A stretch of 64,000 nt of DNA from contig ML002221.1 in NCBI GenBank assembly GCA_003614675.1, positions 1 through 64,000 on the forward strand, read 5' to 3'. The notes below the pieces were generated by a model, which worked only from the letters and a program-made list of their open reading frames with translations, had not been told where the DNA came from and ran no database searches. This DNA is from Dimargaris cristalligena. Taxonomy: Eukaryota. Positions 1,152 through 29,356 of the stretch are shown here, piece after piece (position 1 is the stretch's first letter; every line of letters begins with the position of its first letter). The translations under genes and the position numbers were made by a program.

Positions 1152-2516
1152 ATAGCTTGTGGCGGCTATTGCTCTCGGGTTTTCAACAAGTCCATTTGGT
1201 CATTGAGAACATTGGGGGATAGCCAAGGCAACTCAGCCACCATTTGTTCATTTTTTCGGAATATTTCCCCAACTGTCGGGCGGCGAACACGGATGGCCAA
1301 CTTGAGCTTATCATCGAGGTCGCGGTGCAGATACACAATCCCACCGGCTGTAGGAGCATCATGCCAAGACTGTCTCCAGGAAGAAATTGGGTTTGAATTA
1401 TCGCACTTTTTCTTGGCATTTTGCCATCCCTGTGCACCAGCATACATACAGTGATCATTATATATTGGGTATATTTTACAATCCCCACTGGACTCAGATG
1501 TGTCAAATTCCCAAAGCAAAATAGCTATGTATGCCTGTAAGTCAGCGTGATCTACTTCACAGGCGTAATCTCGGTCACGGAAGTCCGGGGTTGTATTCAT
1601 TAGTGCTTTCAACTCGGTGAATTGGCGGTTAGTGAAAAGGACCGCACTGATGCTGATCATCATTTGTTTCCAGATTAGGCACCTATTGTCCTTTCCCCAT
1701 GGCTCTTTGAATGTTACTTTGATAAATTTGAGTGTTTGTTCATTTTCGCGCTGCTTCTGAATGTCCTTGTCCAGTATGTCTAAATTAAGCAACCTTGCAT
1801 TTATCGTAAGAATATCGTCAGTATTTAATTCCGACAAGAAACCTAGCATCGGGAACAGGGCAAGCTTTTGGTCGAGGTTTAACTGAGTATAGTCCAAATA
1901 CCCCCATTCCGCCTTAATGGCACTCCTTCGTTCTTTGTCGGACAGGTCTATCCAGGATTCTGCGGAAAGAGGCGCCGGCGTCGTATCTTCGGTTACCCCC
2001 ACACTATAGCCATTGCTATTAATCCAGGCTCGGGACATGAGTGCGTCCATTGGCTGCATTGGAAAGAGACGTTGCAGACCGCGAAAATCGATTGGAAACC
2101 TGTTGTATATTACAGGTGATATTTTACTCCTCATCTTTTGGTATTTAAATAATACCGGAGTAGACACGTCAACCAAATACCATAATTAATAATGGGGATT
2201 AATCGATGGGCATAGAAGTGGAGTAGCTATACACATAGTTTGACCATGGACGTGTAACCTAAATAAGAAGTGTTATAATAGAGGAACCACCACAAATAAT
2301 GCCTATTTGAGTGACAGGGGCAAAAAGGCAGTTAGGGATGAACCTGGTAGACTTACTTGGAGAATTACATGGGTAGGTTTGTGTAGATTAGAAAGATAGT
2401 TCGATTTGTCATCAACCTCGGATAGTTCATAGCGGTCATTCGGTGGCAAATAGTCCAAAACATTGTAGAAAACTTCACGGGGCAGGAATGAAAGCCTGTT
2501 GATGGGGTTGTTTTGA

Positions 2517-2548
2517 GGGGCTCTGGTTTTGGGGGGCTCTGGTTTTGG
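2517..2548. repeat. Exact 16-bp tandem duplication (GGGGCTCTGGTTTTGG x2) that causes a frameshift
   Basis: 2517-2532 and 2533-2548 are identical; the peptide PKTRAPQN appears in both reading frames of the ORF track. Confidence 0.9.
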
Positions 2549-2627
2549 GGGAGTCCATAGCTGGCGTAACGCCAATTAGTTGACCATCGTTGTCTTGGTG
2601 GGTAGATTTCTGATTACCTGCAACGGA

Positions 2628-2711
2628 GTCGTCAAAGTCGTCAAAATCGTCGTTAAAGTCGTCAAAATCGTCGTCAAAGTTGTCAAAATCGTCGTCAAAG
2701 TTGTCAAAATC
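2628..2711. repeat. Coding minisatellite, 4 x 21 bp (DFD[N/D]F[D/N]D heptads on the minus strand)
   Basis: Units GTCGT(C/T)AAAGT(C/T)GTCAAAATC start at 2628, 2649, 2670 and 2691. Confidence 0.9.
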
Positions 2712-5700
2712 GTCGTCATCGGAATTATTTCCATAATCCGATGTATTGTTGCCAAGCTGGGTTTCGTAGCCTGATACTTCGCCTAAATCCGCAGGCTGGG
2801 GACGGCCAGTAACACTACAGGCCAGGGCTAGGCCGAGCAAAGTGATAGGGACAAGGTACGGCTTCATTGTCAAAAGACGGGAAATCGATGGGGCGGACAG
2901 GATAAAGTCTTAAAAACGTAGACTAGTCAATAATAAGTTAATACTAATTACTGAATACAATAGTGTAATAAAAAAGAGCGCAAGGAAATTCGAATACTGG
3001 CTAGAGTCCGGTGGGTCTGGGGAAGGTGTGGTGGAATGAATATGAGGGGAGGATGGGTACTTTATATATTGGTGTCGGATGCTGGAGAAGCATGGATAGG
3101 GAAGAAAGCCCCACCGGGTCTGTATGGGAAAAGGGGAAATTATGTTTAACCAATATACATTATCCAGTGAGAAATGGTGATAGATAAATCACATACCCTG
3201 CCTGTGAGACACAACCGAGGAAAGGGGAACCGTTCCACCAAAAGAGGATGGGTGATCATTTCGAACCAAGCCGCTGGAATAGGTCCCCGAGGACCCTAGA
3301 AACCAATCTGCTTGCGCCAAGAAAATGCCACAGAGATGACCAAGCTGTAGCCATATAATTATGTGCTCATTCTTCATGTTGGTACAATTCCAACCAAGGG
3401 AGGTTGGCACCACTCATGGGTGAGAGGTCAATAAACCCATCCACAATATGTGTTATCCAAGTGAAGGAGACCTGTTGGGCTACATTGTGGCCCATTTATC
3501 CCCCACCATGGGAGAGGATGGCCATACCCCAACAGAGCCTCATCTCAGAGGAATAATACATATCACCCGATTGAATTATTCATTTAGTTGTCTGTCCCGC
3601 TTAGTCTCCTAGTTATTTCACGCAGTTCTCTAGCCCAACTCGGCCTTTTCGGCTGCACGATGGTAGGGTCTTTAATAGGCAATACATCTAATTAGAGATA
3701 ATTGTAAGTACGGAGGGAACTTCCTTGATTCATGTAGGGGAGCGGAGGATGAGATATTGGTAAGTTCATATGGCCCTACATTAGTGCTGTTAGTATACTA
3801 GCTCCTCATTGACCGGGTACTATCACAGCTGTATGCATAAGATTGGGTGATTACAGTGTAACCCTGAGTGGTGAATCGTCCCCTTGGTTCCCTTTTAACC
3901 TAGTGTTCCGATTGGCTGTAGAGCTACCATTCAAGGAATGGCCACCGCATAAAGGTCCCCTGTTCATACTCCTCGTTGTTGAACTCAAGCTACAAAAAAA
4001 TATTTTAAAAAAAAGGGTTCCAAAGATGCAAGGGAACAGCCAATAAACCAACTGGATACGGTGGTGTCGGCCTTCGCCCATCTTTCATCATCGCCTTTGG
4101 CTATTTTAGGATGGTTGAAAGTTTCCGATCTCCAACCAAGAATTCCCAATGACTATTTCGGTACAGTTGTCCAATGGTTTTCCTTTCGACTCTTCCCTGT
4201 TCCTTTATGGTTGTGGTCGGGGCTGCTTGAGGGGAGATAGATAGCCCCTCTTTGGCTATACCTGTCTATGGCGGACCTTGGCAACTATATGGGTTTACAG
4301 TGTCTTTTGGTTTTCTCTTTTTGGCTGCCGCAGATACCACTCTAACTTTGAGCTTCCACCCATTACCACTATGCATGGCCAGAAGCATACATATCACACA
4401 AATTATGGGAATAGACTATACCAGACTGTATCCCCTGCACCCCTAGATGAGAACTTATGAACAGCTAGGTGCCGCTATGCATCGAGCACACCACGACGAA
4501 GGCTTCACTTGGTAAATCTTGTAAAGCAGTTTGCCAAAACATTACTTCTGACCCAACAATTCCACCCCCTCCACCATTTAGAGCTGCCGTTTTCACCTAC
4601 ACTCCCTCCCGACATTGGCCCCATGTTCACCCAAATGAGCTCTTTCATTCTCGAATTAAATCCAAAAGGGCTAGTTATTGGCCACCTTTCTTTTGACCCT
4701 TTGAGACTATTGTTCCTTGAGTTACAATGTAGGCCTATAACTACTCTTTAAGGGTGTAGGCCGGGTTCCCCTCCACTGTGTTAGAGGGAAAGCATTGGGC
4801 TGGCCCAGGTCTTCAACAAGCCAATAGGCCAGCAGCGTCGTAGGTTCCCTGATCTGGAAGTGCCTTTGTGATACCTTAGCCTAATGGGCTACGTTGGGTT
4901 GGAAAGCCCAGAACACACCAACTTCTCACCTCCACAATTTTTAACAGGATTTGTCAGCGGAGGGGTTATGTATGTACATGAGAAGTTCATACAGGGTGTC
5001 TAGCGAAAAATCCGTTGGATGAGGCAACTATTACTGGTTGAAATCAAATCTACCGCCTAGTATCCCATATATCTTTTAAATCTTATATAGCTGGGCCGAA
5101 TTTCACCCATATGGGTTATTAGACATGTTACATCTGCCCCAACGGACGGATGCAATTCCGCGAGTACCAATGTATCTCCAACCCTGGCCGAGGATTGCAC
5201 GGCCGGAAATCAAGATAACCAGCGGCCTGGCCATCCAGAATCCCCGGCCTTGGACTGTGAATAAGCCCGGTGCATTATAAACGATGGCCGCAGCCCAAGA
5301 CCTTACTATTGTTATCCATGACATTCGGGGCATAATCTCACCGTATTCCTTCTAGGCCCTTCTCAAGGTCTCCATTCAAAAGCCGAGGGCTCCCTAGGCC
5401 CATCTGGAATGAACTGCCGCGTATGATAGAACTAGTACCGACTACATATAAAGGGTGCACTACCTATCACGTTTCATTTCCTTTGTTCACTAGCGCTCCC
5501 ATTGCTATTACTTTTATTTCGCTCATTTATATCACACTCATCATCATCAGTTTATAAAAGTTCGCTCATAATTATTCGCCAATATAATAGAATAAAAATG
5601 ATTATCCATTTACAGTAAAAACGAATGTTTTCTATAGCTCATGAAATTCCTAAAATGTACTATGAGGACATATGAATTTAACACCCGCTACCTCGTCAGT

Positions 5701-6022
5701 GGAGCCAGTACTGGTTAGGTATAACCCAACAGCCAGGGACCTTGTTAGCCTCTTAACCGCAATGGCCTCATTTTGCACCTAGGCATATTCGCCTGTTATA
5801 ACTAATTTTTATTCAGAATAATTTGTTAGATAATAAATAGCAAGGGTCTAACGAAATATGCTATAGCGAAATCGAATGAATATTCATATATTTATGAAAG
5901 TAAACACTGGACACCAATCCTTTATAACAGGCACTCAAATAGGGATATAAATTGGACTATAATATAACCTCTTATTTCCGACAGGATTACAATGTAAATA
6001 AACGTCTGTCAATTTTGTCAAT

Positions 6023-7336
6023 TTAAGACTTTTCCCTGAGATGTACCCCTTTAGTGTGCCTTCTAAGATTTGAAGCGGTTGTGAATGATCTTTGGCAATG
6101 TTCACAAACAAATGGCCTCTCCCCAGTGTGCGATCTTAAATGAGTGGCTAGCCTACTAGGGCGCGTAAACGATGTCGTGCATCTATTACAGTGAATTTTT
6201 TTTATCTCGCCGGCGCTGGAGTTACTGGCATGGGACTGGAGTTCAGATTCCTTCGTGGCCACAGAGTTACAGGGATTACAGGCATCAAGCGTTCCCTCGC
6301 CTAGTGTTGTCAAATCGCCATTCGGAGGAATACGGTTCGACAGTAAATCATCAGTTATCACGCCGGATTGGGTCGTCTTTTCGTGATGATCGTTTAAGTG
6401 GTCTAAGAGTTCGGTACAAGTGATAAATCGCGTTTGGCACTGGTCGCAAGTGTAAAGCGGATTCTTGGGGTCCTTAAGATCAATATGCATGATGCTGATG
6501 CCACGCCGCGCAAAAAGCGGTTCACAAAAGCCATCGGGGTAAGGCCTAACCCCAGTGTGTACTCCCATATGGACATCCAGCGTATTGGAGTTCTGAAATA
6601 AGCCCTCACAAAAGTTGCAGATGTGTGACTTGGCCCGAGCGATTGAGAGGCAATACTCGTCCAGAGCCTTTTGAAACTTGTACGAGAGCTCACAATGGTC
6701 AGAGAGAAAAGGCCTCTTCTTCACACTTTGTAATTTCGCTTGATCGTCACTGGGAACTAGCCCGGAGGGGCTAGGCAGGGTACGAAGGCGGGTCTCAGGG
6801 CCATCTCCCAATATTTTCTTCGTGGGCTGATTAGGTGGGCTGCCGTCTGATGCCCCTAGGCTTAAGGCGGTGGGATCCCAAGCCATGTCAACCAGATTGT
6901 TGAGGAAGCATGGGTCAAGGTCGACATTGGCCCGATAATCATTGCCGTCCGGTGCGTTATACACGCTACCCGCGGGATTGGGAAGTGAAGCAAAGTACCC
7001 GGAAACACCGCCGGGATTCTGGGCGCGATAGGGGCTGCTTAGTTCCTGGAAACTTGGGGCACTGCTGCCATCCACTGACGGTTCGAATGGATAATTGAAT
7101 AGTTGCAAATCACTGGCGTCTGGCTGGCTTACATAATTATAATTATCGTCAAGTAGGGAGTCGATGGGGTGCGGTCCTAGGGCCGTATTTGAGGTGGGTT
7201 CATCGAAATTATAAAGGTAACTAGGGGTATAGAAAATTGCATTCTCTGGATTGACCTCAGATGGGTTTGGTTCGGTAGCCCTCGCTACAGTGAGTAGCCC
7301 CAACCACAACAGCCCAGTTGTTTTGTGGGCTCTCAT
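6023..7336 (-). CDS. C2H2 zinc-finger protein with predicted N-terminal signal peptide (437 aa, single exon)
   Basis: N-terminus MRAHKTTGLLWLGLLTVARA|TEP (basic n-region, hydrophobic core, A-x-A site). Four canonical fingers (CNFC..HMGVH, CDQC..HLNDHH, CNRC..HLRSH, CEHC..HTKGVH), two degenerate fingers, and linkers TGVRPY and TGERPF. Confidence 0.9.
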   Translation of the reverse strand: MRAHKTTGLLWLGLLTVARATEPNPSEVNPENAIFYTPSYLYNFDEPTSNTALGPHPIDSLLDDNYNYVSQPDASDLQLFNYPFEPSVDGSSAPSFQELSSPYRAQNPGGVSGYFASLPNPAGSVYNAPDGNDYRANVDLDPCFLNNLVDMAWDPTALSLGASDGSPPNQPTKKILGDGPETRLRTLPSPSGLVPSDDQAKLQSVKKRPFLSDHCELSYKFQKALDEYCLSIARAKSHICNFCEGLFQNSNTLDVHMGVHTGVRPYPDGFCEPLFARRGISIMHIDLKDPKNPLYTCDQCQTRFITCTELLDHLNDHHEKTTQSGVITDDLLSNRIPPNGDLTTLGEGTLDACNPCNSVATKESELQSHASNSSAGEIKKIHCNRCTTSFTRPSRLATHLRSHTGERPFVCEHCQRSFTTASNLRRHTKGVHLREKS

Positions 7337-8389
7337 TTTAGGGGACCGGATTGATAAAGGTTGTTGAAAATCAGGTGCAAAAGAGTTTCAGCTAAGGCAG
7401 GATAGAGACAAGACCGCACGTAAATAGTATCATTTAGCGATGATAAAATTATGAAATAATATATCGTCTGTTTTGCTGGGGGGGAGGGCAACATAAGAAG
7501 AGAGAAATATCTGCGAGAAAGCTAATGAGAAAGCGAGCTGGGGTGTATATATATTCAAATAATACTAGGGTTGGCTATGCCAAGATACACACATACATAT
7601 ACAGTTGGCGTAATACCGTGTTCCTCGCTGACCACCTCGTCGAGGATGGGATATTTCCAAGTATCACAGTATCACGCTCTGTGACCTCAACCATATGCCT
7701 ATGTGTAATTGTCTGAAACAGGGTTGTGATGGTTTGAAGAACCCAACGATCCAATGGACCAGCGGACCCTCTGTTGCCGTCGTGGGCCATCCTATAAGCC
7801 AACGGGGCTGCACTGTTTTTCACAATCGTAGCACGAGAGAATATTACTCAGGCCGATGTGAAGACATTGTTGGTACTAAGATAAAGGCTGTCGCTGTAGT
7901 TTAGGCCCCCCTATGGTCATTGCCCATATTCTATTACCGCCGCTCCTAGATGCCTAGTTCAAAATACCTAATTTTGGTGTTAAGCCAACATTCACATCGT
8001 AACAGGCCGCTCGCTCAATGGTGTAACTAGTGTAACGGATGAAGAGGGCGCTGATATGCATTTCGGATTGGGGAGTTAATAAAAATAATATATTGTTATT
8101 GAAATTACATAACAATATTTGACCAAATGCGAGGTTGGGTGGATATATAGCCGACTATTTAATCTAATGGACTAGCTGGTCCTTTTATAAATAGCAGTAA
8201 ACGCGGAGAAAAATAGTATTGCAATGGCAGTGGCCTAGGTTAAATAAAAATATATACAATCTATAACCATAATAAACACCAGTGAAAAAGTATATTAGCA
8301 AATGTAATATAATATGTTGTGGGGTTTGGCGGGCTTTTCATCGGTGTCACGCCCACCGTACAGATGACTGTTGAGCGAAAACCGATACT

Positions 8390-9994
8390 TCATTGGGTTC
8401 CAATATACTGCGGGCAATTGAGGTGGGGATAGAGTTGTCTAAACTCCGACTCATCCCTCTCGGAGTTAAGTTTTACTCGGAGAGTGCTAAGTTTAGGTAG
8501 GCGTAAGACTAGGACTGACAAGTCGTACAGCCTTTGGTATGCATTCAAACCCATCGAAGTGATAGAAGCGCTGCAAAAGGTCTCTTTTCCCAGGAGCGAC
8601 AATTCAGAACTGTGGAAGCCGAAATCAACCACCGAAAGGTTAGAACATTGGGCGATTAGAGTTGCAATTGCCGAGGGGGGGCAAATACAGTCGCTGATGG
8701 TTAGGCGACGGAGACCCGGGAGGTTCCGACTTATTGATTGGCAGAGTTCGTCACTAAGCGGAAAACTGCGAAGGGCGAGTGCAACCAAATGGGACCACCT
8801 AAATGCGAATGGCTGGCTGAGCATGGGGTGGTCGGTTTGGTCCAGGAAACATAGTTTTTCCATAACGGTAAAATCCCAGTCGAGGCTTTTTAATCGAGGG
8901 AATCGGGCTGGATTAAGAACCTGGGCCACGGTCCGGTGGGCGGCCAAGTGGTTGGATTCGATGGCCAAGACGACTAAACCCCGGAAAACCTGATGCTCCC
9001 AATACTGGAGTAGATTCGGAAGTTGAGGGTACGGGGAAACCCGCAAGTGTTTTAATTGGGGAAGGTAAGGCAGCAAACCTTGGTAGAAATCGACGTCGAG
9101 AGACCCATCCTCGAATTTCAATGTCTGGAGAGTCGAGAAGAGACCGATGGTGACCAGGACGCCTTCCAAGTCCGCGAAATTTCTCGGACAGGTTATTCGT
9201 AAAGAGGGAATTTGGCTTAAATAGTGGCGGGTCGATATGGAGAACGCATCGTAGGTGACGCTTCGTAATCTGGAGCTATTACTAGTAGGTGGAATGAGAA
9301 TGGCCAATTTTTGAAGGGGATGAGACAGCTCCGCTAGTATTTCGGCGTACTTGGGCCAGTCGGCAAAATCGATATCCTCGAGGATCACCGAGACCAGACG
9401 AAGGTTCGAACTATTACAAAACTTCCGCAGCTCCGTGAGTTGGTCATGCAAGGCCATATGTTCCACAGTATGAATGGTAAGTTCCCGCGTGACATCCCGA
9501 AGGGACAACCCCGGGGAATAACCACCGACGGGATCCTCAAAGATAGCTTCGTGAAAGTAAGTACCGAACCCGTAGGCCATTCGAACCCGAAGTCGCAGCG
9601 AATGACACACGGCGGCCAATGCTCGCTGTTCCGCGTTGGCTAAGCGGTGGATAATCCGCTGCCCATACTCTTGGTTAATGGGATGGAAAAACCACATGAG
9701 GAGTTGCAATCCGATCCTGGGATCGCTTGGGGGGGAAGCCGGGGCTTGGATTGGGGCTGGGACCATTATTCCCTCTGAGGATGAGCCAGAGTGGGTTTGG
9801 GATTCGGATTCGTCGGATTCACCCGAGGAGGTGGTCTCCCCGTCACCAGCCTGCTCTAACCAGTAGTCCCAGTCGGCGAAGTCTAAATGGCCATGCGGAC
9901 GGGGGGCAGCTGAGACTGATATTTCAGTGGAGCCGACCATGAATGAATGTTCTTCGGAGGATTCAGATTCTGCGCGGCCGACTGGAAAAACCAT
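8390..9994 (-). CDS. F-box-like / RNI-type leucine-rich-repeat protein (~534 aa, single exon)
   Basis: Likely start is the ATG at 9994 (MVFPVGRAESES); the upstream 72 codons of the ORF run through a (TA)n tract. Acidic Ser-rich N-terminus, F-box-like QRIIHRLANAEQRALAAVCHSLR, then repeated LxxLxL units (LQKLAI, LQTLKF, LKHLRV, LKSLDW, LRRLTI, LSTLRV). Confidence 0.8.
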   Translation of the reverse strand: MVFPVGRAESESSEEHSFMVGSTEISVSAAPRPHGHLDFADWDYWLEQAGDGETTSSGESDESESQTHSGSSSEGIMVPAPIQAPASPPSDPRIGLQLLMWFFHPINQEYGQRIIHRLANAEQRALAAVCHSLRLRVRMAYGFGTYFHEAIFEDPVGGYSPGLSLRDVTRELTIHTVEHMALHDQLTELRKFCNSSNLRLVSVILEDIDFADWPKYAEILAELSHPLQKLAILIPPTSNSSRLRSVTYDAFSISTRHYLSQIPSLRITCPRNFADLEGVLVTIGLFSTLQTLKFEDGSLDVDFYQGLLPYLPQLKHLRVSPYPQLPNLLQYWEHQVFRGLVVLAIESNHLAAHRTVAQVLNPARFPRLKSLDWDFTVMEKLCFLDQTDHPMLSQPFAFRWSHLVALALRSFPLSDELCQSISRNLPGLRRLTISDCICPPSAIATLIAQCSNLSVVDFGFHSSELSLLGKETFCSASITSMGLNAYQRLYDLSVLVLRLPKLSTLRVKLNSERDESEFRQLYPHLNCPQYIGTQ

Positions 9995-11353
9995 TATTGA
10001 TGCTGGGAGTGGAGGTGAGGGAAATATGTAGTAGCTATATCGAATAAATAGGTGGCTAAAAAGATGATATATATATCGAAATGATAGAGAGAAAGCATAA
10101 TTGATACCAGAGTAGGGTGTAGGGTATATATATATATATATATGTACATATAGCCGAAAGAGTGACCGTCCACGACTCGGAAAATGCAATGGTGCTGGGT
10201 AACCATGCATATAGCCACCACGCCTATCCTAGGCAAGTTCATGGTTTATATTGGCCGGAAGTTTTTATTTTCGCGACTTCATAATAGCGGGGTGTTCTTG
10301 CTGTCAAGTACATTCTACATTGACGCTACTTTGGCTGCAGTACGGGACTCTAGGCTTTTTCATTGCTCACACTACCTCCTTCAATATAGCAGCTATATGA
10401 ATTCGAGAATCATTAGTGCTGCTTAGATTTGAGCATGAACATAGGTTCAATTACTGGATTTCTCTGCCACTGGTCAACCCAGTCGCTGCCTGCCTGACTA
10501 ATAAAGTATCTTCCGAATGGATGCACAGCAGTTTAATAGCCAACCTTCGGTAATGAAAATATACATAATAAAAAAAGTACACCCATGAATATTCCTGATG
10601 TCTCTTCCTGGAGCCTAGCTTTTCGCGAAGTTCCTAGATTCATTGTCTGCTGTAGCTCGGTCGATTTTATTTTATTATCGCAGGCCAGGTGGCAGCTATT
10701 ACCTAATGGGCCTTAGGATATTGGCCCTTCCTATTTCCTGACCATTGGGCACTTGGGTTCGGGATTTTTCGAGACCACCGGAATCTAGACATCGGACGAT
10801 TAGCGGCAGATCTACTCGCCAAAATGCCCTTTGAATTTTAGACTACCAAATGTATGATTTATCCAAGGTTGTACCAATTAGCATGCCCAACGGCGAATCT
10901 GGTGGTTTTTTATGCTAAATCCACGAAACAGCCTAGGTGGTGTATACTCCAGAGTGCTACTCCGAGGGCCATACAAGTTTTTCTAACTTCGTCGAATGAC
11001 TACGCTCTACCAGCCATAACCTTCGTTGGGGTTATTATCCAGAACAGGTATTAGGTCAAAATATTGGATATCACTCAGACTCTCCTGCAAACTCGTAAAT
11101 TCAAATAGTCAAAATATGCAGCACCGATAGCTGCAAAGGTCACAGTGTTAGATCAACAACTTCTTCACCGTATGCCACCATTCCCCTCCCTTCTAGCCAG
11201 AGAGTTCCCCGATTTAAAAGAAACCAAGATGGGTGTATTTAATGACGCGGTAATTAATGAATCCAAAAGCTTGTTGGTACCATCCAAGTGGTCCTGACGC
11301 TAAATAAAGGCAGATAATCCAAATAAAGAGCAGCCGCCTGAGAATATGTAGGT

Positions 11354-13972: not shown

Positions 13973-15046
13973 ATGGCCCAGTTCTTCCGTGCCGCCTTTT
14001 CCCTCTATTCCTCCAGCGCCCGCAGCCATCCATTACTGACCCTGGCCCTCACCAATGCCACACTATGCGGTGCTTCCGACATCTTCGCCCAGTCCATGGC
14101 CCACCGTTCCTTACGAAAGCAACTCCAGGCCCGCGAACTAGAGACGGCCACTAACCCCAGCCGGACTAGTGGTTCGGATACCACCGTGCCAGTAGTCACT
14201 TCCGAAATTCCGCTCATTGACTTGGACACAGACCTAACGGGTCCTAATGCTCCTTCGACACCAACGTCTTTGGACGCCCCCCTGGGGGATACTACTACTA
14301 CGACTACTACTACCCACCAGGCCGCCGGGACGAGTCCGACCGTCGCGCATACATCCACCCAACACATCGATACCCACCAGCCCCGTCCCGTGCACCTGGC
14401 CCAGCTGCCCAGTTCTTTTACCCTCGACTACCGCCGTCTGGCCAATTTCGCCGCCTTTGGGTTTTGTGTCGCCCCTATTTTGAATCAGTGGTATACCCTA
14501 TTGAATACTCGGTTTCCGGTGGTTACCCCCGTGGCCAAGGCGACGACGGGTACCGCCGCTGCTTCAGTCTTCAATGGTCCCATGGTCAAGGCGGTGCTCA
14601 AACGGGTAGTGACGGACCAGTGTTGCTGGGCGCCCGTCGGTATCGGATTCTTCTTTGTATTCATCTCGATTGCCGAAGGAGGCGGCTTTGAGGGTATTAA
14701 AGAGAAATTCCAGCAGGTAAGTAGTTTTCTGGATTTTACATGTAAAAAAAAAAACATCCCCCTTACTATCACTAAGGTATCCTATGCCCTTGATAATGGA
14801 CTCCAATTCTCACTACTTTCCATTATAAACCCCGAACAATCCTCCCTATAGAATTACCTGCCGGCCCTGACGGCCAACTATAAAGTATGGCCCCTCGTGC
14901 AATTCGTCAACTTCTTCTACGTCCCGTTGGCGCTCCAGGTGCCCTTCGTGAGCTTCGTCTCCCTATTCTGGAACTCCTACCTCAGTTGGCTCAATAGCCA
15001 GCGCGTCGGCCAAACGCCCGACGAGAGCAATGCCCTCGGTGGTTAG
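13973..15046 (+). CDS. Mpv17/PMP22-family membrane protein (Sym1-like); 2 exons, 312 aa
   Basis: Exons 13973-14716 and 14852-15046. Motifs HPLLT..TNA.L...SDIFAQ, DYRRLANF..FG, KRVVTDQ..WAP, NYKVWPLVQFVNFFYVP, WNSYLSWLN. Confidence 0.92.
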
Positions 15047-15744: not shown

Positions 15745-16434
15745 ATGGCCAAGTACAAGAATTCCTTCCGGGCTTCCGCCTGGGACCCCATCATGATTAT
15801 AGCCCAAATCGCCGCCTTCCAGTCGATATCCTACGTTTCCCTGGGTCTCCTCATCACGGCGGCCCAGGTGCTGCTAGGACTCGACAGTTCGCTGGACCAC
15901 GCCCTCCATTACACGTCCCTGCGCAGTGACACCGTGTTCGGGTGGACCCTTGCCGCCATCTGGTTGGTCCAGGCGATCGTGGGCATTCTCCTCCTGGGGT
16001 ACATTGTCGAACGGGTACGTTTATGCGTCGATTTTACCCTCACGTTCTTTGGTATTCACCTCGTTATGGTCAGCGTGTACTCGCACCGCTTGCCCAACTT
16101 CTTCTTCTGGTGGCTGGTTTCATTAGTATATGTGGTGGTGACTATCCTGGGCGGCGAGTGGTTCTGTATGCGCCGGGAAATGCGCCCGATTCAGTTCGGA
16201 TCCTCGGCCGATAATGAACATGATGGTGACCACCACCACCATCACCCCGATGAAATGGTCGATGACGCTAACGATATGCTTATGGTAGGGAGCAATGGCC
16301 ATGGCAATGGAGGCCGGGCCAGTAGCTCGAGCACTTCCGACCAGCGTGGTCGTCACCATTACCTGCCGTTGGTCGAGACGGGGCGCCCTAGCTCTAGCGG
16401 CCGGGGCAACAACGGCAGTTTCCGCGTGGATTAA
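15745..16434 (+). CDS. SYS1: Sys1-family Golgi integral membrane protein (229 aa)
   Basis: FR...WDPIMIIAQI...Q..SY, IVERVRLCVDFTLT, P..FFWW and GEWFCMRREMRPI motifs; four hydrophobic segments. Confidence 0.92.
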   Translation: MAKYKNSFRASAWDPIMIIAQIAAFQSISYVSLGLLITAAQVLLGLDSSLDHALHYTSLRSDTVFGWTLAAIWLVQAIVGILLLGYIVERVRLCVDFTLTFFGIHLVMVSVYSHRLPNFFFWWLVSLVYVVVTILGGEWFCMRREMRPIQFGSSADNEHDGDHHHHHPDEMVDDANDMLMVGSNGHGNGGRASSSSTSDQRGRHHYLPLVETGRPSSSGRGNNGSFRVD

Positions 16435-19400: not shown

Positions 19401-22400
19401 CCGGCTTCGTCAGTCCATCCATGTAACACTATTTGTTTACCTTTTCACGGTGATTTTAACCTCCGCTTCCAACCCAGCCAGTCCCCTCCAAGAATGAAAA
19501 CGGAGCGCCAATCCTGTTCCTTCACCAGAGCTTCAAAGTATGGAGCCGAATGTCAGAAGCCAAGGGAGTGTATTGGCGGAGCAACCTTACCTTCTTCCAG
19601 CCGAAGCGTACTAACTCCAGCTATGTTCGACCATTAAACCCGTCTGCCCGCAGTGATGTCCGCTACTACTATTGAATCATCATCATTATCAGTAAAACCG
19701 TCACTAAGCCAATATTAATAAACACGGCAATTGATACCGCGGTTCCTTCATCTATTTTTTTGGAAGGGAGACGTAGATGGAGGGTAGACTGTGGATAACA
19801 ATAAGGGAGGGGGGCCCAAGGGGAATGTGGGGCACCTAGGATCAAAGGGAATCCTGAGCCGACCGAGTGTGGCTCCTTCATGAGATTGAATGAAATGAGA
19901 GATGGATGTACCAAGGCATAGTCTACGCGCAGTGAATAGCAAAGTGGAGATGGCAAGGGTGGGGTGTGCGTATGTATCTCTCTCTCTCTCTATGTGTGTA
20001 TCCAGTGGGGTGATTGTCTATGTGTTTAGGGGTCAGAGTTGACGATACACAACCCCGGAGTCAAAAAATAATTAGAGCGGATGTAGTGTGGGGCTGGCAA
20101 ATCGGCTAATTAATATCATTGCCTAGACCGTGTTGACGTTAATATTATAAAATAATAAAAAACACCCTATTGGCCTCAGTGACGACAGCTCCCGTTGAGA
20201 TCTGTGTGTTATAAATAGTTAATGTTGACGCTTAAACCCTATTTTCGCTTTTACTCTTTCGAATTTATCTTATTTCTCTATACTTAAACCTTGATGGATA
20301 TGTTAAATTCAAATAGCTGCTAACACTCCCTTGTTGCATCATTATCACTCTAGTGGCTCTTGTATATTGCTTATTTAGCCCCATTAGTCATTTTAATTTT
20401 GGGGTTGTTTATCCTAGGGTTCACTGGTTTCAACCCTATATCGATTTCCCGGTTTGCCGATTTGGAGAACTGGTTTTTATTAACCCCCCTTCCACTTCAG
20501 GTGCAGTTGCGGAATATTCCCGTGCCCCAGCTCCCCCCAGGTCGACAGGCATTTACATCGCGATCCCACTGGCTCCTCCGCTCAGCCACGCATTTTCCCT
20601 CGCATAAATATAAGCTGGTAAGCCTCATTAAGATTCCAGATGTATTATTATTATGATAATTTAAAACACTATTAGCCGTGGGGACCACTATGCCGGCCTA
20701 CTCTGGCATCAGCTTTTGTACCTTTGGGCCACCTACGCCTGGCTACCCTCTCTTTAGGACTCTCTCTCTCTCTCTCTCTCTCTGGCATTCTCCCCAGCCC
20801 ATTTCTATCACCGATACGGGTTCAGTGGACTGTTCAAGGTTATTGGCGGCGGTGTATGATACCCTGGATTTTAATACTTGTACATGCACGAGTTTTTCGG
20901 TTGATTAAACACGTCGCCGACTCCTGCAGGCGGGGAAATCGGTAGGTGGGGGAAGCGAGCGGGGGAGAGAGGGAGTGGTGTAAGGGGGTGGGGGTGGGGA
21001 TGATGCCGCAACACGAAGTGGACCAGACCTATCGTTGCCAAGGATTAGAGGTGCACTATAAGTCTGGCCGGTATCCCAAAAGACGGAATGGAGGGGGTAA
21101 TGGTTTAAGAGAGGAGAGGAGAGAAAGGAACTCATGACCCGAGGGGTATCCGCCCTGCCGGCTCCGCCATCGCGCTCGTGGTGAATGGCCTCTCCTCCCG
21201 CTGCTTTCCTACCTTGCTTTTTTACCACCCGATGACCTGCTCATATGTACCCCACCATCCCGGCTTAAGGAGAGGGACATGAGGAGAGAGATTGCACAAG
21301 TTACATAACCGGCCAGGCAACCCGGGTTCAGTAATAATGCCACTCCCTCCTCGAGAAAAACACACACATACACACAGCCTCGACCGACTCGCGCACACTA
21401 TGGACGATGGGGTATTCAACTATATTTACCAACTGAGCAGCTCTGCGTGGTCATGCGCCCACAACAATGGCCAGACCCAGCCGAATTGTGCGGTTGTATA
21501 TATACTTGTATATTCGTTGGTCGGAATAGTATCCCCCTCCACTGTCACTCACCTTCATTACCCTGGACTGCCGGATGGAATGGGCATGAGCGGTGATTTA
21601 AAGGATAGTATTATTATTATAATAATAATTCCTTGGAGTAAGAAGTGTGGGGGGTCCTTTTCATTTACCTGCGTCGGACCTGCTGGGCGGAACTACCAGG
21701 TGATGCGAGGGTTTATTCAGTACCTGCTGGCAAAACCCTGGGTGTGTGTGTGTTGTTTTGTTGCGGGGGAGGGGGGAGACTTTCAGGTCCATTTGCCTAA
21801 TCCGGGAGGTGTGGACTTTTTATATTATAGTGCCGGCTTGCTGGGCGCACCCCCCTCTCCCTGTTCAACTTTCTGGCCCATGCGAGCCAGTCTAGGAGGA
21901 GGTTCCTGGCTACGTATATGCGCATTAATGGTGGTGGTGCCAATCCAGCCCTTTATTTGCGTATATGTACTCTCGCAAATATATACGCAGGTAATTGACT
22001 TGAACTTCGTTTCTACTGCTTATCTTGTTCCCGCTGACCCCTTTCTTCCTACATGTCTACTTCTATTTTGTTATTGGTTTTTGCCACCCGACACTGTCCC
22101 TGTTTAGATTCCCCCTCCGCCCTTTGTCAACAACACCTGCCGTCGCGACCCGCACGGCTTCCGATATAAATCTCCGGTTGTTTTTTGACAGTCCCCCGGA
22201 CTACCCGCCCAAACCCTCCCCACCGTCCTATAGCGCACCCATTGCTTTATTCTCACTCTCGCGTGCTGAAACACCGCTTTTTCATTCCCAGGTCCACCAA
22301 ATTCATCGGCTCTGCGTCTAATCATACCGGCATTTCCCCCATCCGCTCTCAACTGTGCTCACGCCGCTGCGCTCCGCGGAGTAACATATTAATCACCGGG

Positions 22401-24967: not shown

Positions 24968-27900
24968 ATGAGCGAGAACCCACTTGCTCCGTCTTTTGAA
25001 ACTCCGCCTACGCGTTCGGATACACAGCCGTTGCCGCCACGTAAAGAGCCCTGTGCCACCCCTCTGTCCATTAAACTCCCGCCGATCCAGGATCTCAACT
25101 CCACCCCGCGGGGCGAACCTGACTCGCCTGCCCATATCTCCGGCCGACGATCCGCCGGTGACCCGTACCTCCCAGCTACCAGTGCTCCCGCCGCTTCCCT
25201 AGCCGATCCCGTCAGTCGCGCCATGACCCAGTCGGTGCCAGGGACCCAGACTGCGGCCCCGGCTCATCCCTTGAGCTCGGCCAATCTTACTGCCAGTATA
25301 GTCACTTCGTCGGGTGATCCCGCTTCGGTCCTCAAAAGCGAACCGTCGTCGGTATCCCCCCGGCCCACCCTCACCCCCGCCATCTCACTACCACCGCCGT
25401 CCCATCCGAGCGCGGCTCCCTTCTCTCCCTCGGGCTATGCGACCCGTATGTACACCACGGGCCCGCCCCCACCCGGGGGTCCCCCACTCCCGGGCTTCAT
25501 GCCACACAACCACCCACCTGCCTCTCCCACCCGCCCCCACCACCATCCGCACGCTCCCCGGCGGTTATCCCACTCGACTCACCATCCTTCACACTACGCC
25601 ACCCAGAGTCCGCCGGTGCCGTTCCCCCGGCCCCAGGGCTATCAGCCCCAACCACCCGACCGGGTTATCCCCTTCCCTCGTATGTACCCTGCGCCGGGGG
25701 AGAACGCTTACCGACCCCGTCCGCCTAATCATGCCGCCCCCTTGTACCATCACCCGGCTGCCGGTCTACCCCACCCCCCATCATCCCCCTACGGGCTGCC
25801 ACCCCCGCCTAACGGTCCGCATTCCCATCATGGGGGGCACCCCATGGCGGGCATGGGCCATCCACCTAACTTGCTAGCTAATATGTCGCACCAGCCCCCC
25901 ATGCCTAATCTTCCCAACGGTACCCTCACCGATCATTGGACCGAGGAAGAAGTGGCCGAGATTCTGTCCTACATCAAGAACAATTTCCAACTGTGGCAGC
26001 AGTCCAAGGCGGTGAGCTACCGTAAGTGCCGGGAGCAGCTGCCGAACCGGACGGAAAAGCAAATCAAGAACAAGGTGGAGAAACTAATCAGCAAGTATCA
26101 CAAACTGTGCACCTGGAAGGCCACTACCGCCGATCCGCAGTCCCAAGTGCGGAACTGGAAATGGTACACTAAGCTTCACGAGGTTTTTCACACCCTGGAT
26201 ACCACCCGACCCGGGTCCAAGGGCCCCCTTTCCTCCATGGGCAATGGTGGTAATTCGGGGGTTCCGGTTTCGAGCCCTCATTCTGCCGGTGGGCATACCG
26301 CCTGGAAGTCGGCCGGCTCTTCGGACGACCGTTCCAGTATGGGCTCGGATAACCCCCGCGCTTTTCCCAGCGAGCTAGTGCGGCGGCATACCACGAGTTC
26401 GGCTCGGCCAACCATCCGCACCCAACACGGCGGCCCTCACCAAATGCGGATGGCCTCCCCTTCAGTAACCGCAGCATCTTCCTCACTATTAGCCCTGGCA
26501 TCGGCCTGGAAACCCAACCCGGAGCCCAGCCCACGTGGGGGGAGCTCTTCTTCCCAGCATTCGAGCCACCCTCCACCACTGTCACTGCCCCCTATCGAGT
26601 CCGAATCCTCTGCATTTGCGCCTTTCCCTCGGCTACCCGGCGAAGGCCTCCAAAACCAACCGCCCCCTCAATTCCAAGGTCACCCCCACAGCCATCTTTA
26701 TAACAGTCGGTTACGGAGCCAGTCCGCCAGTGTGGTGGGCGAACATCCAACGATGCTACGGGCGCCCCCCGGTTTCGACAGACATGGTGGGGGCCCACTT
26801 AGACATCCCCGGGTCAGCGGGCACCCTCCCCCGCTTATGATGTCGGGTCATCCCCACCACCGACATCATCCCAACTCTTCCCACTCGGGTTCACCCCTAT
26901 CCCCACACCACCGCCCTCCTCCCCACCAGTCAGGTCTCGATGGCCCTGGTCACCGGGACGGGCGTTTGCGTTCCCCACTTCACGGCGCACCCGAAGGAGT
27001 TCATTACAGCCAAGAACATGATGCTGCCAACCGCCCGCGTCGTAGTTCTATGCCGGTTCCACCCCCCGGCGATTCTACAGTCCCGCCGCACCAGAGACCC
27101 CTGGAAAACGGCATGGCTTCCCCTCGCAGCGGCCAGCCCCGTATTTCGCTCAGCTTTGCGAGTGATGATGTCGAGTGGAACTACCACCCAAATGGTTCAG
27201 GACCCACACCCCCTTACTCAGGGACTCCCACTAGTGGTCCATCGTCGCCCTACACTCTCACACCGAGCCGATTCACCGCCTACCCGCCTCCTGCGGGGCC
27301 TGGTGGTCCCTTGCCGCCCCCAGGTCAGAGTGGCTCAAACCATTACATGCCTCGAATCCGGGCTCCCATTGGCCATCACCACCGCCACCGGCATAGTGTA
27401 TACGAAAGCCCCAATGTTCAGTCCCCCATCTGGTCCGAAAACAACTCTGCCGGGCCTTCGAGTGCTCCCTACCCCCAACCTGCTGCCGGAGGTCCTTCGA
27501 GTACTGGTCCCGCCAAGCGCCGTAAGAGCTTCCATGACCACCCCCGTCCGGACCTGGCTACCGGCTTGGGGGCGGACCCCTCACCGAACGAGGCTTCTCG
27601 CTCCCCTGGATTCGAGCACCCGCTCGCGCACGCCGGTTACCCCCTTGCGACAACTGCATCCCACCCTGGGTCGGTGGGATCCGAAAACCGGAATCCGGCT
27701 GACGGCGGCCGCCCTAGCCCTACCACCTCCTACTCGGCGGGAGCCGTTCCTCTGGTGAAACCCAGCCCGCTTGGTTCCCGTTCTAACCGAATCCTTGCCA
27801 TCACTGATCAGGCTTTGCATGAGAAGAGAAAGCGGGTCATCAGCCACGGTGTCCCCGAGAATCTCCAGCAATTGACCCAGGATATTGAGGGCTCGATTAG

Positions 27901-29356
27901 CGTTCAGCAGGGTCCCAGTCCCAAGAGTCCAGGCAGGGGTTCCACCAGGGACACTCCGATGCATTCAGATGCGGCTATACCTACGACTATGGACTGCCAG
28001 CGCAGCTCATCACTCGAGTCTCCGTATTGCGGCCAACCTACTTCATCGTCGCCTCCGCAGAAATACGGACCTTCGGGGAGCTCCGCCCAGCCCCATGCTA
28101 AGCGTCTGGCTGTGCGACGACGCGCCGCCACTGTATCCGAAGGGGCCCGAGTTCCTGAATACTGGTCTGCGTCCATGGAGAACTCCAACGGTAACCATGC
28201 TCACAACCAAGATGGTCACCCAAGGGATGTACCAATAGGCGGTATGGCTACTGCTGCGCATACCCTTGCCTCGATTACCACCAGTGGCTCCCACTCATCC
28301 TCATCCTCATCCTCCTTGTCCCTTGGAATCAATGAGCAGCCCTTGTCTTCTTCCCCCTTGGGTTCCCTAACATCATCGCCTGGTTCATCTCGGATGATGT
28401 CCCCCCGTGCCTTCACCGCCTCATCGACATTGTCGGTTGCCTCAGCCCATGTCAATGGGTCGGCTGACGGTGTTACCAATGCCAGCATGGAAAGCACGCG
28501 TACGGTAGGCGACTCTGCCCACCAAGGACTCGCGGATTTGATTCGGATAGGCAGTGGAGAAGACTCTGTGCATTTTTCCCGAGCCGGTGCCCAGACTAGG
28601 CTGTCTATCGGTACCACCGAAGTGGACCTCTCCCAAATTTTGCCAATCAGTTATTGTCAGCATATCCAGCCCTTCGTGGCTCATCTCATTGGCACCGTCC
28701 AGGGACTCATGGACCTCAAGACCCAGGAAATCCACTTGCACCACGAGCTCCAGCAGGTTCTGCGCAAACTGAAACAACATCAGCTGGGAGATAAAATTTG
28801 CGAATCCTTTAGCCCCGACCACTCGACCCAGCAAGTATCCGTTCACTCCCACTCAACCTCCCATGGCCGGTATAGCTTTCAGTTGCCGGCTTCCGAAGAT
28901 GTGGATATGTCCGATTCTAAGGATTCCAATCACCCGGCTGACTTGATCCACTCCACTAGACAGGTCTGTACCGGCCATAGTCCAATCTCACCCTCTGGCC
29001 CAGGATTCCCCGGGAACCATGGTTCTGGTGAGCCCATGGATATGGAGATGGCCGACGCTGTTGAACTGGCCATGTCACTAGTTAAGCGGGCCTCGTCGCT
29101 ATCTTCATCGACCTCGTCCACTTCGACGTCGACATCCACTCCTACTACTATGAATGTGCCTATAGAGTCTAGCGATAAGCACCCTACCGCCTCCCCAGCG
29201 GAGGATTTAAACACCGGCACCCTGCTTAACGAAGATCGTCATAAGACTCCCACCGAATCAGAAGGGTGTGGAGATACCCTGGCGACTAAACAAGAGGGCA
29301 TATCTCCATTGAATCATTCCCAAGAATTGGTATTGCCTGCTGTCTCTGAAGCCTAG
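24968..29356 (+). CDS. Large Pro/Ser/His-rich protein with one Myb/SANT-like (trihelix-type) DNA-binding domain; putative transcription factor (1462 aa)
   Basis: 4.4-kb uninterrupted ORF. Domain WTEEEVAEILSYIKNNF...RTEKQIKNKVEKLISKYHK...WKWYTKLHEVF; basic motifs PAKRRK and EKRKR; short amphipathic/coiled-coil segment near the C-terminus. Confidence 0.85.
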   Translation: MSENPLAPSFETPPTRSDTQPLPPRKEPCATPLSIKLPPIQDLNSTPRGEPDSPAHISGRRSAGDPYLPATSAPAASLADPVSRAMTQSVPGTQTAAPAHPLSSANLTASIVTSSGDPASVLKSEPSSVSPRPTLTPAISLPPPSHPSAAPFSPSGYATRMYTTGPPPPGGPPLPGFMPHNHPPASPTRPHHHPHAPRRLSHSTHHPSHYATQSPPVPFPRPQGYQPQPPDRVIPFPRMYPAPGENAYRPRPPNHAAPLYHHPAAGLPHPPSSPYGLPPPPNGPHSHHGGHPMAGMGHPPNLLANMSHQPPMPNLPNGTLTDHWTEEEVAEILSYIKNNFQLWQQSKAVSYRKCREQLPNRTEKQIKNKVEKLISKYHKLCTWKATTADPQSQVRNWKWYTKLHEVFHTLDTTRPGSKGPLSSMGNGGNSGVPVSSPHSAGGHTAWKSAGSSDDRSSMGSDNPRAFPSELVRRHTTSSARPTIRTQHGGPHQMRMASPSVTAASSSLLALASAWKPNPEPSPRGGSSSSQHSSHPPPLSLPPIESESSAFAPFPRLPGEGLQNQPPPQFQGHPHSHLYNSRLRSQSASVVGEHPTMLRAPPGFDRHGGGPLRHPRVSGHPPPLMMSGHPHHRHHPNSSHSGSPLSPHHRPPPHQSGLDGPGHRDGRLRSPLHGAPEGVHYSQEHDAANRPRRSSMPVPPPGDSTVPPHQRPLENGMASPRSGQPRISLSFASDDVEWNYHPNGSGPTPPYSGTPTSGPSSPYTLTPSRFTAYPPPAGPGGPLPPPGQSGSNHYMPRIRAPIGHHHRHRHSVYESPNVQSPIWSENNSAGPSSAPYPQPAAGGPSSTGPAKRRKSFHDHPRPDLATGLGADPSPNEASRSPGFEHPLAHAGYPLATTASHPGSVGSENRNPADGGRPSPTTSYSAGAVPLVKPSPLGSRSNRILAITDQALHEKRKRVISHGVPENLQQLTQDIEGSISVQQGPSPKSPGRGSTRDTPMHSDAAIPTTMDCQRSSSLESPYCGQPTSSSPPQKYGPSGSSAQPHAKRLAVRRRAATVSEGARVPEYWSASMENSNGNHAHNQDGHPRDVPIGGMATAAHTLASITTSGSHSSSSSSSLSLGINEQPLSSSPLGSLTSSPGSSRMMSPRAFTASSTLSVASAHVNGSADGVTNASMESTRTVGDSAHQGLADLIRIGSGEDSVHFSRAGAQTRLSIGTTEVDLSQILPISYCQHIQPFVAHLIGTVQGLMDLKTQEIHLHHELQQVLRKLKQHQLGDKICESFSPDHSTQQVSVHSHSTSHGRYSFQLPASEDVDMSDSKDSNHPADLIHSTRQVCTGHSPISPSGPGFPGNHGSGEPMDMEMADAVELAMSLVKRASSLSSSTSSTSTSTSTPTTMNVPIESSDKHPTASPAEDLNTGTLLNEDRHKTPTESEGCGDTLATKQEGISPLNHSQELVLPAVSEA

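Follow-up and report, generated by a model that had tools for sequence, protein, structure and literature searches.

Where does a C2H2 zinc-finger protein act if its N-terminus resembles a secretion signal? The question is raised by an open reading frame (ORF) of Dimargaris cristalligena at positions 6023 to 7336, minus strand, of the window (the whole stretch of 64,000 nucleotides that we analysed). The answer that we favour, with a probability of roughly 0.4, is that this lineage-specific gene could encode a secreted effector directed at the nucleus of a host, of the kind represented by MoHTR1-3. Several other explanations compete with it, and they are weighed below along with the evidence that bears on them.

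The reading frame itself is sound. It stays open for 437 codons, the stop codon being included in the span given above, and encodes a protein of 437 aa. Across 100 block-shuffled windows the longest ORF starting with ATG measures 332 aa (mean 185), so none of the 100 attains this length. With the window's conserved genes as the reference for codon usage, the coding frame comes out best of the three (-4.24, against -4.49 and -4.59), and in sub-regions it beats the other two everywhere but in the first 60 nt. A narrow scan with a strict donor motif finds no candidate for a frame-keeping intron inside the ORF. The sequence-only reading had described an intact single-exon ORF, and the open frame and the empty intron scan, narrow as it is, support that description. 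The surrounding 4000-9000 region gives no Rfam match to a structured RNA at the gathering score. A transposon origin was considered and rejected: the protein has no transposase or other such domain, long flanking repeats are absent and the window holds no second copy.

Also the position of the start is tightly bounded. According to the upstream sequence and its translation, the closest in-frame stop 5' of the ATG is located at 7388 to 7390 (minus strand), 51 nt away, and these 51 nt contain neither another ATG nor an AG dinucleotide that might act as a splice acceptor. The second methionine of the ORF is residue 151. Within this exon the start is immovable: the ATG at 7336 is the sole one that takes in the first 150 codons. 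RNA spliced into the ORF 3' of the leader may be the remaining way round it. The deposited model of a paralogue, RKP36291.1, begins at the corresponding start.

The first 20 residues (7277 to 7336, minus strand) form the leader. Its n-region is basic with a charge of +3 (K+R-D-E, with 1 added for the free N-terminus), and is followed by an uncharged hydrophobic run from residue 6 to 18 with a core of 11 to 13 residues and a best 8-residue Kyte-Doolittle mean of 2.17. Judged by small residues at -3/-1, candidate cuts fall after residues 16, 18 and 20, the last of these between ARA and TE and thus of the A-x-A type. We called the leader with our own rule set rather than a trained predictor, and about 2% of controls pass this rule too. 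It asks for a net positive n-region, for an uncharged run, no shorter than 8 residues, whose Kyte-Doolittle mean is 1.6 or higher and which begins within the first 15 residues, and for small residues at -3/-1 soon after the hydrophobic run. The ORF protein passes, as do 126 out of 5000 shuffles of its first 40 residues and 5 of 262 other C2H2 proteins starting with Met; in all five the n-region charge is lower (+1 or +2). Of the window's 27 ORFs that reach 100 aa, 3 pass, the zinc-finger ORF included. By this home-made rule the leader noted from the letters is of signal-peptide type, with a positive charge, a hydrophobic core and an A-x-A site. Further downstream, no hydrophobic segment is found after residue 35 (19-residue windows, mean Kyte-Doolittle of at least 1.6), and the C-terminus reads LREKS instead of a KDEL/HDEL-type ending. 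It follows that the product would be soluble and released, if the leader works.

The control counts bring in a first competing explanation, in which the gene encodes an ordinary endogenous transcription factor that works in the nuclei of the fungus itself, and the leader resembles a signal peptide by chance, with no efficient entry into the secretory pathway, or is circumvented by a downstream start or splice (for example at Met151). With 5 out of 262 ordinary C2H2 proteins passing the rule, a genome with tens of C2H2 genes may hold one such leader by chance. A C2H2 array combined with an acidic region is moreover the standard build of a nuclear factor, and a language-model search with the finger-less residues 1-232 places these nearest to clusters of C2H2 proteins, with a score of 0.92 and 130 shared features (weak by the calibration of the tool). 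Nonetheless, the leader has the full n-h-c build with an A-x-A site and a charge that exceeds that of all five control passes, and no other start is available before residue 151. It is also retained in the paralogue, and the coding stretch for residues 7-61 is recognizable at a third locus. Finally, a working ER signal would mis-sort a nuclear protein, so that selection should remove it from a factor of this type. We hold an endogenous factor to be somewhat less probable than the effector reading.

Behind the leader, residues 21-170 (6827 to 7276, minus strand) make up an acidic, aromatic and proline-rich region, as judged from its composition; searches with the N-terminal half give it no relative from another species. 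Its net charge is about -18: among the 150 residues there are 20 D/E and 2 K/R, together with 18 F/W/Y and 20 P. Next comes a basic patch at residues 204-208 (SVKKR/VKKRP; 6713 to 6727, minus strand). VKKRP is the sole basic cluster outside the fingers; a second one, RRHTK, lies within finger 6. The consensus of a nuclear localization signal is K-K/R-x-K/R, and the VKKRP patch does not fit it. Possibly the KKRP patch is a weak nuclear localization signal.

The remainder of the protein carries six finger units, all encoded on the minus strand. Four of these satisfy the C2H2 ligand pattern C-x2-4-C-x12-H-x3-5-H and the two others are decayed; the intact ones have the form C-x2-C-x12-H-x3-4-H. 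According to the ligand pattern, finger 1 (residues 240-260, 6557 to 6619) is intact and is followed by TGVRPY. Finger 2 (residues about 268-288, 6473 to 6535), read from the translation, has kept two of four ligands: C271-x12-H284 remains at the correct spacing and the first Cys and second His are gone. Finger 3 (residues 297-318, 6383 to 6448) is again intact by the pattern. Finger 4 (residues 353-373, 6218 to 6280) has three of four ligands, with a match to C-x2-C-x12-H over residues 353-369 and the fourth ligand absent. The last two units, finger 5 (residues 383-403, 6128 to 6190) and finger 6 (residues 411-432, 6041 to 6106), are intact by ligand pattern, Pfam and structure matches alike, and are joined by TGERPF, which like the TGVRPY after finger 1 is a linker of the TGEKP type. 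Pfam zf-C2H2 (PF00096) is found in 3 stretches with an E-value of 8.3e-11 and 42.1 bits, compared to a curated cut-off of 25.2. Fingers 5-6 align to classical fingers whose DNA-bound structures are solved (ZNF568, Aart, PRDM9, CTCF and Zif268), with E-values from 1e-14 to 1e-37. This terminal pair resembles classical DNA-binding fingers of a generic kind, and the suggestion, made from the letters, that its recognition helices are MtfA-like and mimic a host regulator is unsupported. AlphaFold2 run on the single sequence yields a mean pLDDT of 35.5, with no residue above 70, a model too uncertain to be of use. Every element of the anatomy that had been read from the letters, that is the acidic/aromatic/Pro-rich stretch, KKRP, four intact and two degenerate fingers and TGERPF, was found again.

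A second explanation should be discussed here, namely that the protein does enter the secretory pathway and has no role in a host nucleus, being an extracellular or cell-wall binder of nucleic acids or metal, or carrying a leader that targets an organelle. The leader features argue for this as much as for the effector reading, and the weakness of the nuclear signal suits it. However, fingers arranged in tandem and joined by TGERPF belong to the DNA-reading type, and the core of the leader is contiguous and hydrophobic (mean Kyte-Doolittle 2.05 over residues 8-18) rather than an amphipathic basic helix. We consider this explanation quite improbable.

The N-terminal half of the gene is an orphan. 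A search of 5.8 billion proteins with residues 1-232 returns 1135 candidates at E<=10, among which a single relative is present, the D. cristalligena paralogue RKP36291.1 (P0002) from another contig; none of these candidates is a relative from outside D. cristalligena. With the full-length protein, 90,137 matches at E<=0.001 are obtained among 1.84 billion representatives, mostly multi-finger proteins. P0002 is the best relative, and among the 150 matches listed it is the only one that covers the N-terminal 138 residues. The remaining matches listed are finger-to-finger, and those with a name are nearly all animal multi-finger proteins; among 120 matches listed there is no named fungal relative other than D. 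cristalligena itself. The search for shorter relatives was run at E<=1e-10, a threshold that may hide a short and weakly similar N-terminal paralogue, for instance a third copy.

The comparison with P0002 reveals an uneven pattern. Over residues 1-240 the two proteins are 91% identical. P0002 differs at four positions in the first 177 residues (P121T, A136V, I175T and G177E) and at many more beyond, the identity from about residue 175 to 240 being well below that of the shared tract. The leader is kept. The last 62 residues of P0002 match a different frame of the window ORF (6400-6585, 63% identity), which shows that the paralogue is frameshifted at finger 1 (about residue 241) and that its model consequently lacks the fingers; its precomputed Pfam entry is '-' (none).

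The same picture emerges from the DNA, for which contigs of four DNA runs were aligned to positions 4500-9500 of the window. The tract from 6766 to 7332 is near-identical in the window copy and the paralogous copy and appears in the runs as a single contig piece of 567 nt; in run X4 this piece carries exactly the four changes that produce the four amino acid differences of P0002. Another contig, about 1.24 kb long, covers 6399-6795 with 70 differences and 3 gaps; over 6068-6213 it shows 23 differences, and the stretch between the two aligned parts is equal in length and more diverged. Beyond the shared tract the paralogue thus shows 93 differences over 543 aligned nt, or about 82-84% DNA identity. 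Leader and acidic region are near-identical between the two copies, and the finger region differs by about 18%. The simplest reading of this uneven divergence would be gene conversion of the 5' part.

Traces of a third locus are found on a contig of 2520 nt in run X1 and 9318 nt in run X4. It aligns only to 7152-7317, the coding stretch of residues 7-61, where 31 of 166 nt differ; eight of the nine differences listed change an amino acid. In the shared tract, run X5 shows two changes other than those of the paralogue, and both are synonymous (N65 and N67), though this is a very small sample. As judged from these alignments, the gene is a member of a very small birth-and-death family, which would comprise a frameshifted second copy and a third locus that shares the leader-proximal part.

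Base composition sets the gene apart from the conserved part of the window. Its GC3 is 0.515, similar to the values of 0.48-0.53 for neighbouring ORFs without a family, and the conserved SYS1, DDX23-type helicase and GATA factor genes reach 0.65-0.72. The ORFs around the zinc-finger gene have no Pfam family. About 3.2 kb past its 3' end an ORF of 130 aa (2475-2867, minus strand) passes the leader rule and continues with acidic repeats rich in D, F and N. At about 4980-5113, 0.9 kb from the gene, lies a dispersed high-copy repeat to which numerous contigs align in each of the four runs. It is in neighbourhoods of this sort that effector genes of plant pathogens are often located. The neighbourhood would suit an effector gene and equally a young, non-functional ORF.

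This last option deserves attention as an explanation of its own: a young or dying gene without a function, still open in a decaying, duplicated family and barely or not expressed. A low GC3 relative to that of the conserved genes would be expected under it, as would two decayed fingers, a paralogue that is frameshifted from about residue 241 and the absence of a full-length model from the protein collection (see below). Also the DNA identity of about 82% beyond the shared tract is, by our estimate, close to neutral divergence. Yet a frame of 437 codons has been kept open, a length that is reached in 0 of 100 shuffles, four fingers have retained every ligand and the linker still follows the consensus. 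The in-frame codon usage is best in all sub-regions save the first 60 nt, and the two non-paralogue differences in X5, few as they are, leave the protein unchanged. On balance we regard a functionless gene as unlikely.

The effector reading gains from the biology of the organism. Dimargaritales parasitize Mucoromycota and some Ascomycota by means of an appressorium and a biotrophic haustorium, as described in a published account (PMC9866270). The guess of a parasitic fungus, made from the letters without knowing the source, therefore fits, D. cristalligena belonging to this order of haustorial parasites of fungi.

In such a setting, the effector reading would work as follows. Translation would start from the ATG at 7336. 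The 20-residue leader, with its classical signal-peptide features, would direct the protein to the ER and be cleaved off after ARA. The 417-aa product, in which neither a membrane segment nor a retention motif is present, would then be freed at the interface between parasite and host. It would have to enter the host hypha and could reach the nucleus through the KKRP patch or through the fingers themselves. Here the Zif268-type pair of fingers 5-6, aided by fingers 1 and 3, would bind host DNA, and the acidic and aromatic N-terminal region, judging from its composition, may serve as an activation domain.

Points in favour of an effector are the orphan N-terminal half, the decaying duplicate, the low GC3 and the nearby leader ORF and repeat, which by analogy would be typical of the context of effector genes. 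Other observations count against it. Two decayed fingers out of six and a frameshifted paralogue would also fit a family that is drifting towards loss, and the differences listed for the third copy change an amino acid in eight of nine cases. The fingers must furthermore withstand the oxidizing secretory pathway; that this is possible is shown by the MoHTR proteins. The weakness of KKRP as a nuclear signal, the missing full-length record in public annotations, and a size and finger number well beyond those of MoHTR1/2 weigh against an effector too.

A more elaborate version of the effector reading may be formulated as well, although we consider it a tentative and somewhat doubtful one. It would be a fungus-to-fungus transcription-factor effector, a multi-finger activator that passes from the haustorial interface into a Mucorales host and switches on host genes directly. 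It would belong to a small birth-and-death family in which gene conversion keeps the leader and N-terminal module uniform, with divergence or loss affecting the DNA-reading part.

Precedents for the general type are available in Magnaporthe oryzae. A screen of its secretome is reported to list 20 predicted secreted proteins with a DNA-binding domain, 10 of which are of the C2H2 class (PMC7672089). According to the same report, MoHTR1 and MoHTR2 are secreted by way of the biotrophic interfacial complex, are found in rice nuclei and bind effector-binding elements. MoHTR3 is described as a small secreted C2H2 protein that has likewise been shown in host nuclei in a signal-peptide-dependent manner (PMC10189765). 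Judging from these reports, the sequence-only suggestion of a new eukaryotic analogue of TAL-type effectors is overstated, because MoHTR1-3 have already been demonstrated (PMC7672089, PMC10189765) and make the signal-peptide C2H2 nuclear effector an established kind.

The likeness to MoHTR1-3, as far as these are described, is that an N-terminal signal peptide (predicted here) precedes a C2H2 DNA-binding part (PMC7672089, PMC10189765), that the genes are lineage-specific with few or no homologues, and that they come from a fungus with a biotrophic mode of feeding across an interface structure. Differences are considerable too. MoHTR1/2 are reported to have one C2H2 domain each, with basic residues on either side, and MoHTR3 is small (PMC7672089, PMC10189765), whereas the mature D. 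cristalligena protein would count 417 residues, with six finger units, of which four are intact, besides a long acidic and aromatic region. Moreover, the presumed host is another fungus instead of a plant, the producer is a zoopagomycete rather than an ascomycete, and our protein is a predicted one. As searches with the N-terminal half give no relative from another species, shared descent with MoHTR1-3 is unlikely; the likeness is in the presumed mode of action.

TAL effectors of Xanthomonas combine a DNA-reading array with an acidic activation region and are delivered to the host nucleus. The resemblance to them is no more than conceptual: here too a DNA-reading array is combined with an acidic region in the protein of a parasite, and delivery to the host nucleus is presumed. 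The array consists of C2H2 fingers rather than repeats of 33-35 residues with variable di-residues, without any homology, and a predicted ER signal peptide takes the place of type III secretion. Among endogenous factors, Zif268/EGR1, ZNF568 and CTCF are comparable in that fingers 5-6 and the TGERPF linker align to their solved DNA-bound structures. These proteins have no secretion leader, in contrast to the present one, which also differs by its two decayed units and its long inter-finger spacers.

To our knowledge, almost nothing is known about host control by biotrophic mycoparasites of early-diverging fungi. The literature that we searched, by title and abstract, describes no nuclear effector in a mycoparasite or in Dimargaris. 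If true, the fungus-to-fungus version would supply mycoparasites and early-diverging fungi alike with their first known nuclear effector. What would be new is the setting, with a zoopagomycete parasitizing a fungus, several fingers in one array next to a long acidic region, and a leader module subject to gene conversion. Were the protein to be secreted and to reach the host nucleus, the concept of nuclear effectors would be carried over from plant pathogens to parasites of fungi that are fungi themselves, and a tractable DNA-binding effector would become available with host targets that can be read out by DAP-seq. With a non-functional leader the gene would be just another orphan zinc-finger gene. 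Overall, we see it as a credible candidate for an effector of an already known kind.

A last observation concerns the annotation of this region. The exact 437-aa protein is absent from a collection of 15 billion proteins, in which no full-length model was found; a record of 53 aa, without a name and with NCBI as its only source, covers fingers 5-6 only. Public annotations thus apparently do not call the gene. Within the first 22 kb, five further ORFs that belong to no family likewise lack an exact record, so the annotation gap is not peculiar to the zinc-finger gene. As a consequence the public gene sets of D. cristalligena may miss a gene of 437 codons, and secretome surveys built on them may miss such genes. 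Two other ORFs of the window are represented in the collection by their exact proteins: the GATA factor ORF at 47301-49397, which clusters at 90% identity or more with KAJ1992191.1, a protein from a second D. cristalligena annotation, and the SYS1 ORF at 15745-16431, which does so with KAJ1992186.1 from that annotation.

Within window positions 7340-7753, upstream of the zinc-finger gene, the contigs of the four DNA sequencing runs contain joins that skip window sequence. Position 7340 is joined to 7615 in contigs of three runs (X1, X2 and X5), and 7666 is joined to 7753 in contigs of all four. Judging from these joins, the upstream region of the paralogue (RKP36291.1, the second copy on another contig, whose fingers were lost by frameshift) appears to be homologous to that of the window, but without 274 and 86 nt that are present there. 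Alternatively, both stretches could be a gain of the window copy.

A third and more divergent version of the sequence next to the leader also occurs, seen only in the run contigs. It matches window 7152-7317, which codes for residues 7-61 of the zinc-finger protein, with 31 differences over 166 nt, and sits elsewhere in the genome on contigs of 2.5-9.3 kb. Given this copy, the leader-proximal module of the gene could be common to other genes.

A short dispersed repeat lies near the gene at about 4980-5113. Here the summed contig depth amounts to 34,000-70,000 (against approximately 20-300 in the flanks) in each of the four runs, and the edges are the end points of many contigs. Because its two ends, as read by eye, resemble imperfect inverted copies, the repeat may be a MITE-like element. 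It has no match in an Rfam search, and the window contains no further copy.

Some 3.2 kb downstream of where the zinc-finger gene ends, a 130-aa ORF (2475-2867, minus strand) starts with a strong signal-peptide-like leader, which satisfies the same home-made rule as applied to the zinc-finger protein, followed by a highly acidic block of D/F/N repeats. Its exact sequence is absent from the protein collection, and the ORF may represent a second predicted secreted orphan near the gene.

The 1462-aa ORF at 24968-29356 (plus strand, 60% G+C) has no Pfam family at E<=0.001 and no exact sequence in the protein collection. G+C is lower in window 1-22000 (0.41-0.51 per 2 kb) than in 24000-50000. ORFs without any Pfam family in this G+C-poorer first third (1166-2134, 8390-10210, 13973-14851 and 21337-22107) show a GC3 of approximately 0.48-0.60; the conserved genes, which encode SYS1, a DDX23-type helicase and a GATA factor, have values of 0.65-0.72.
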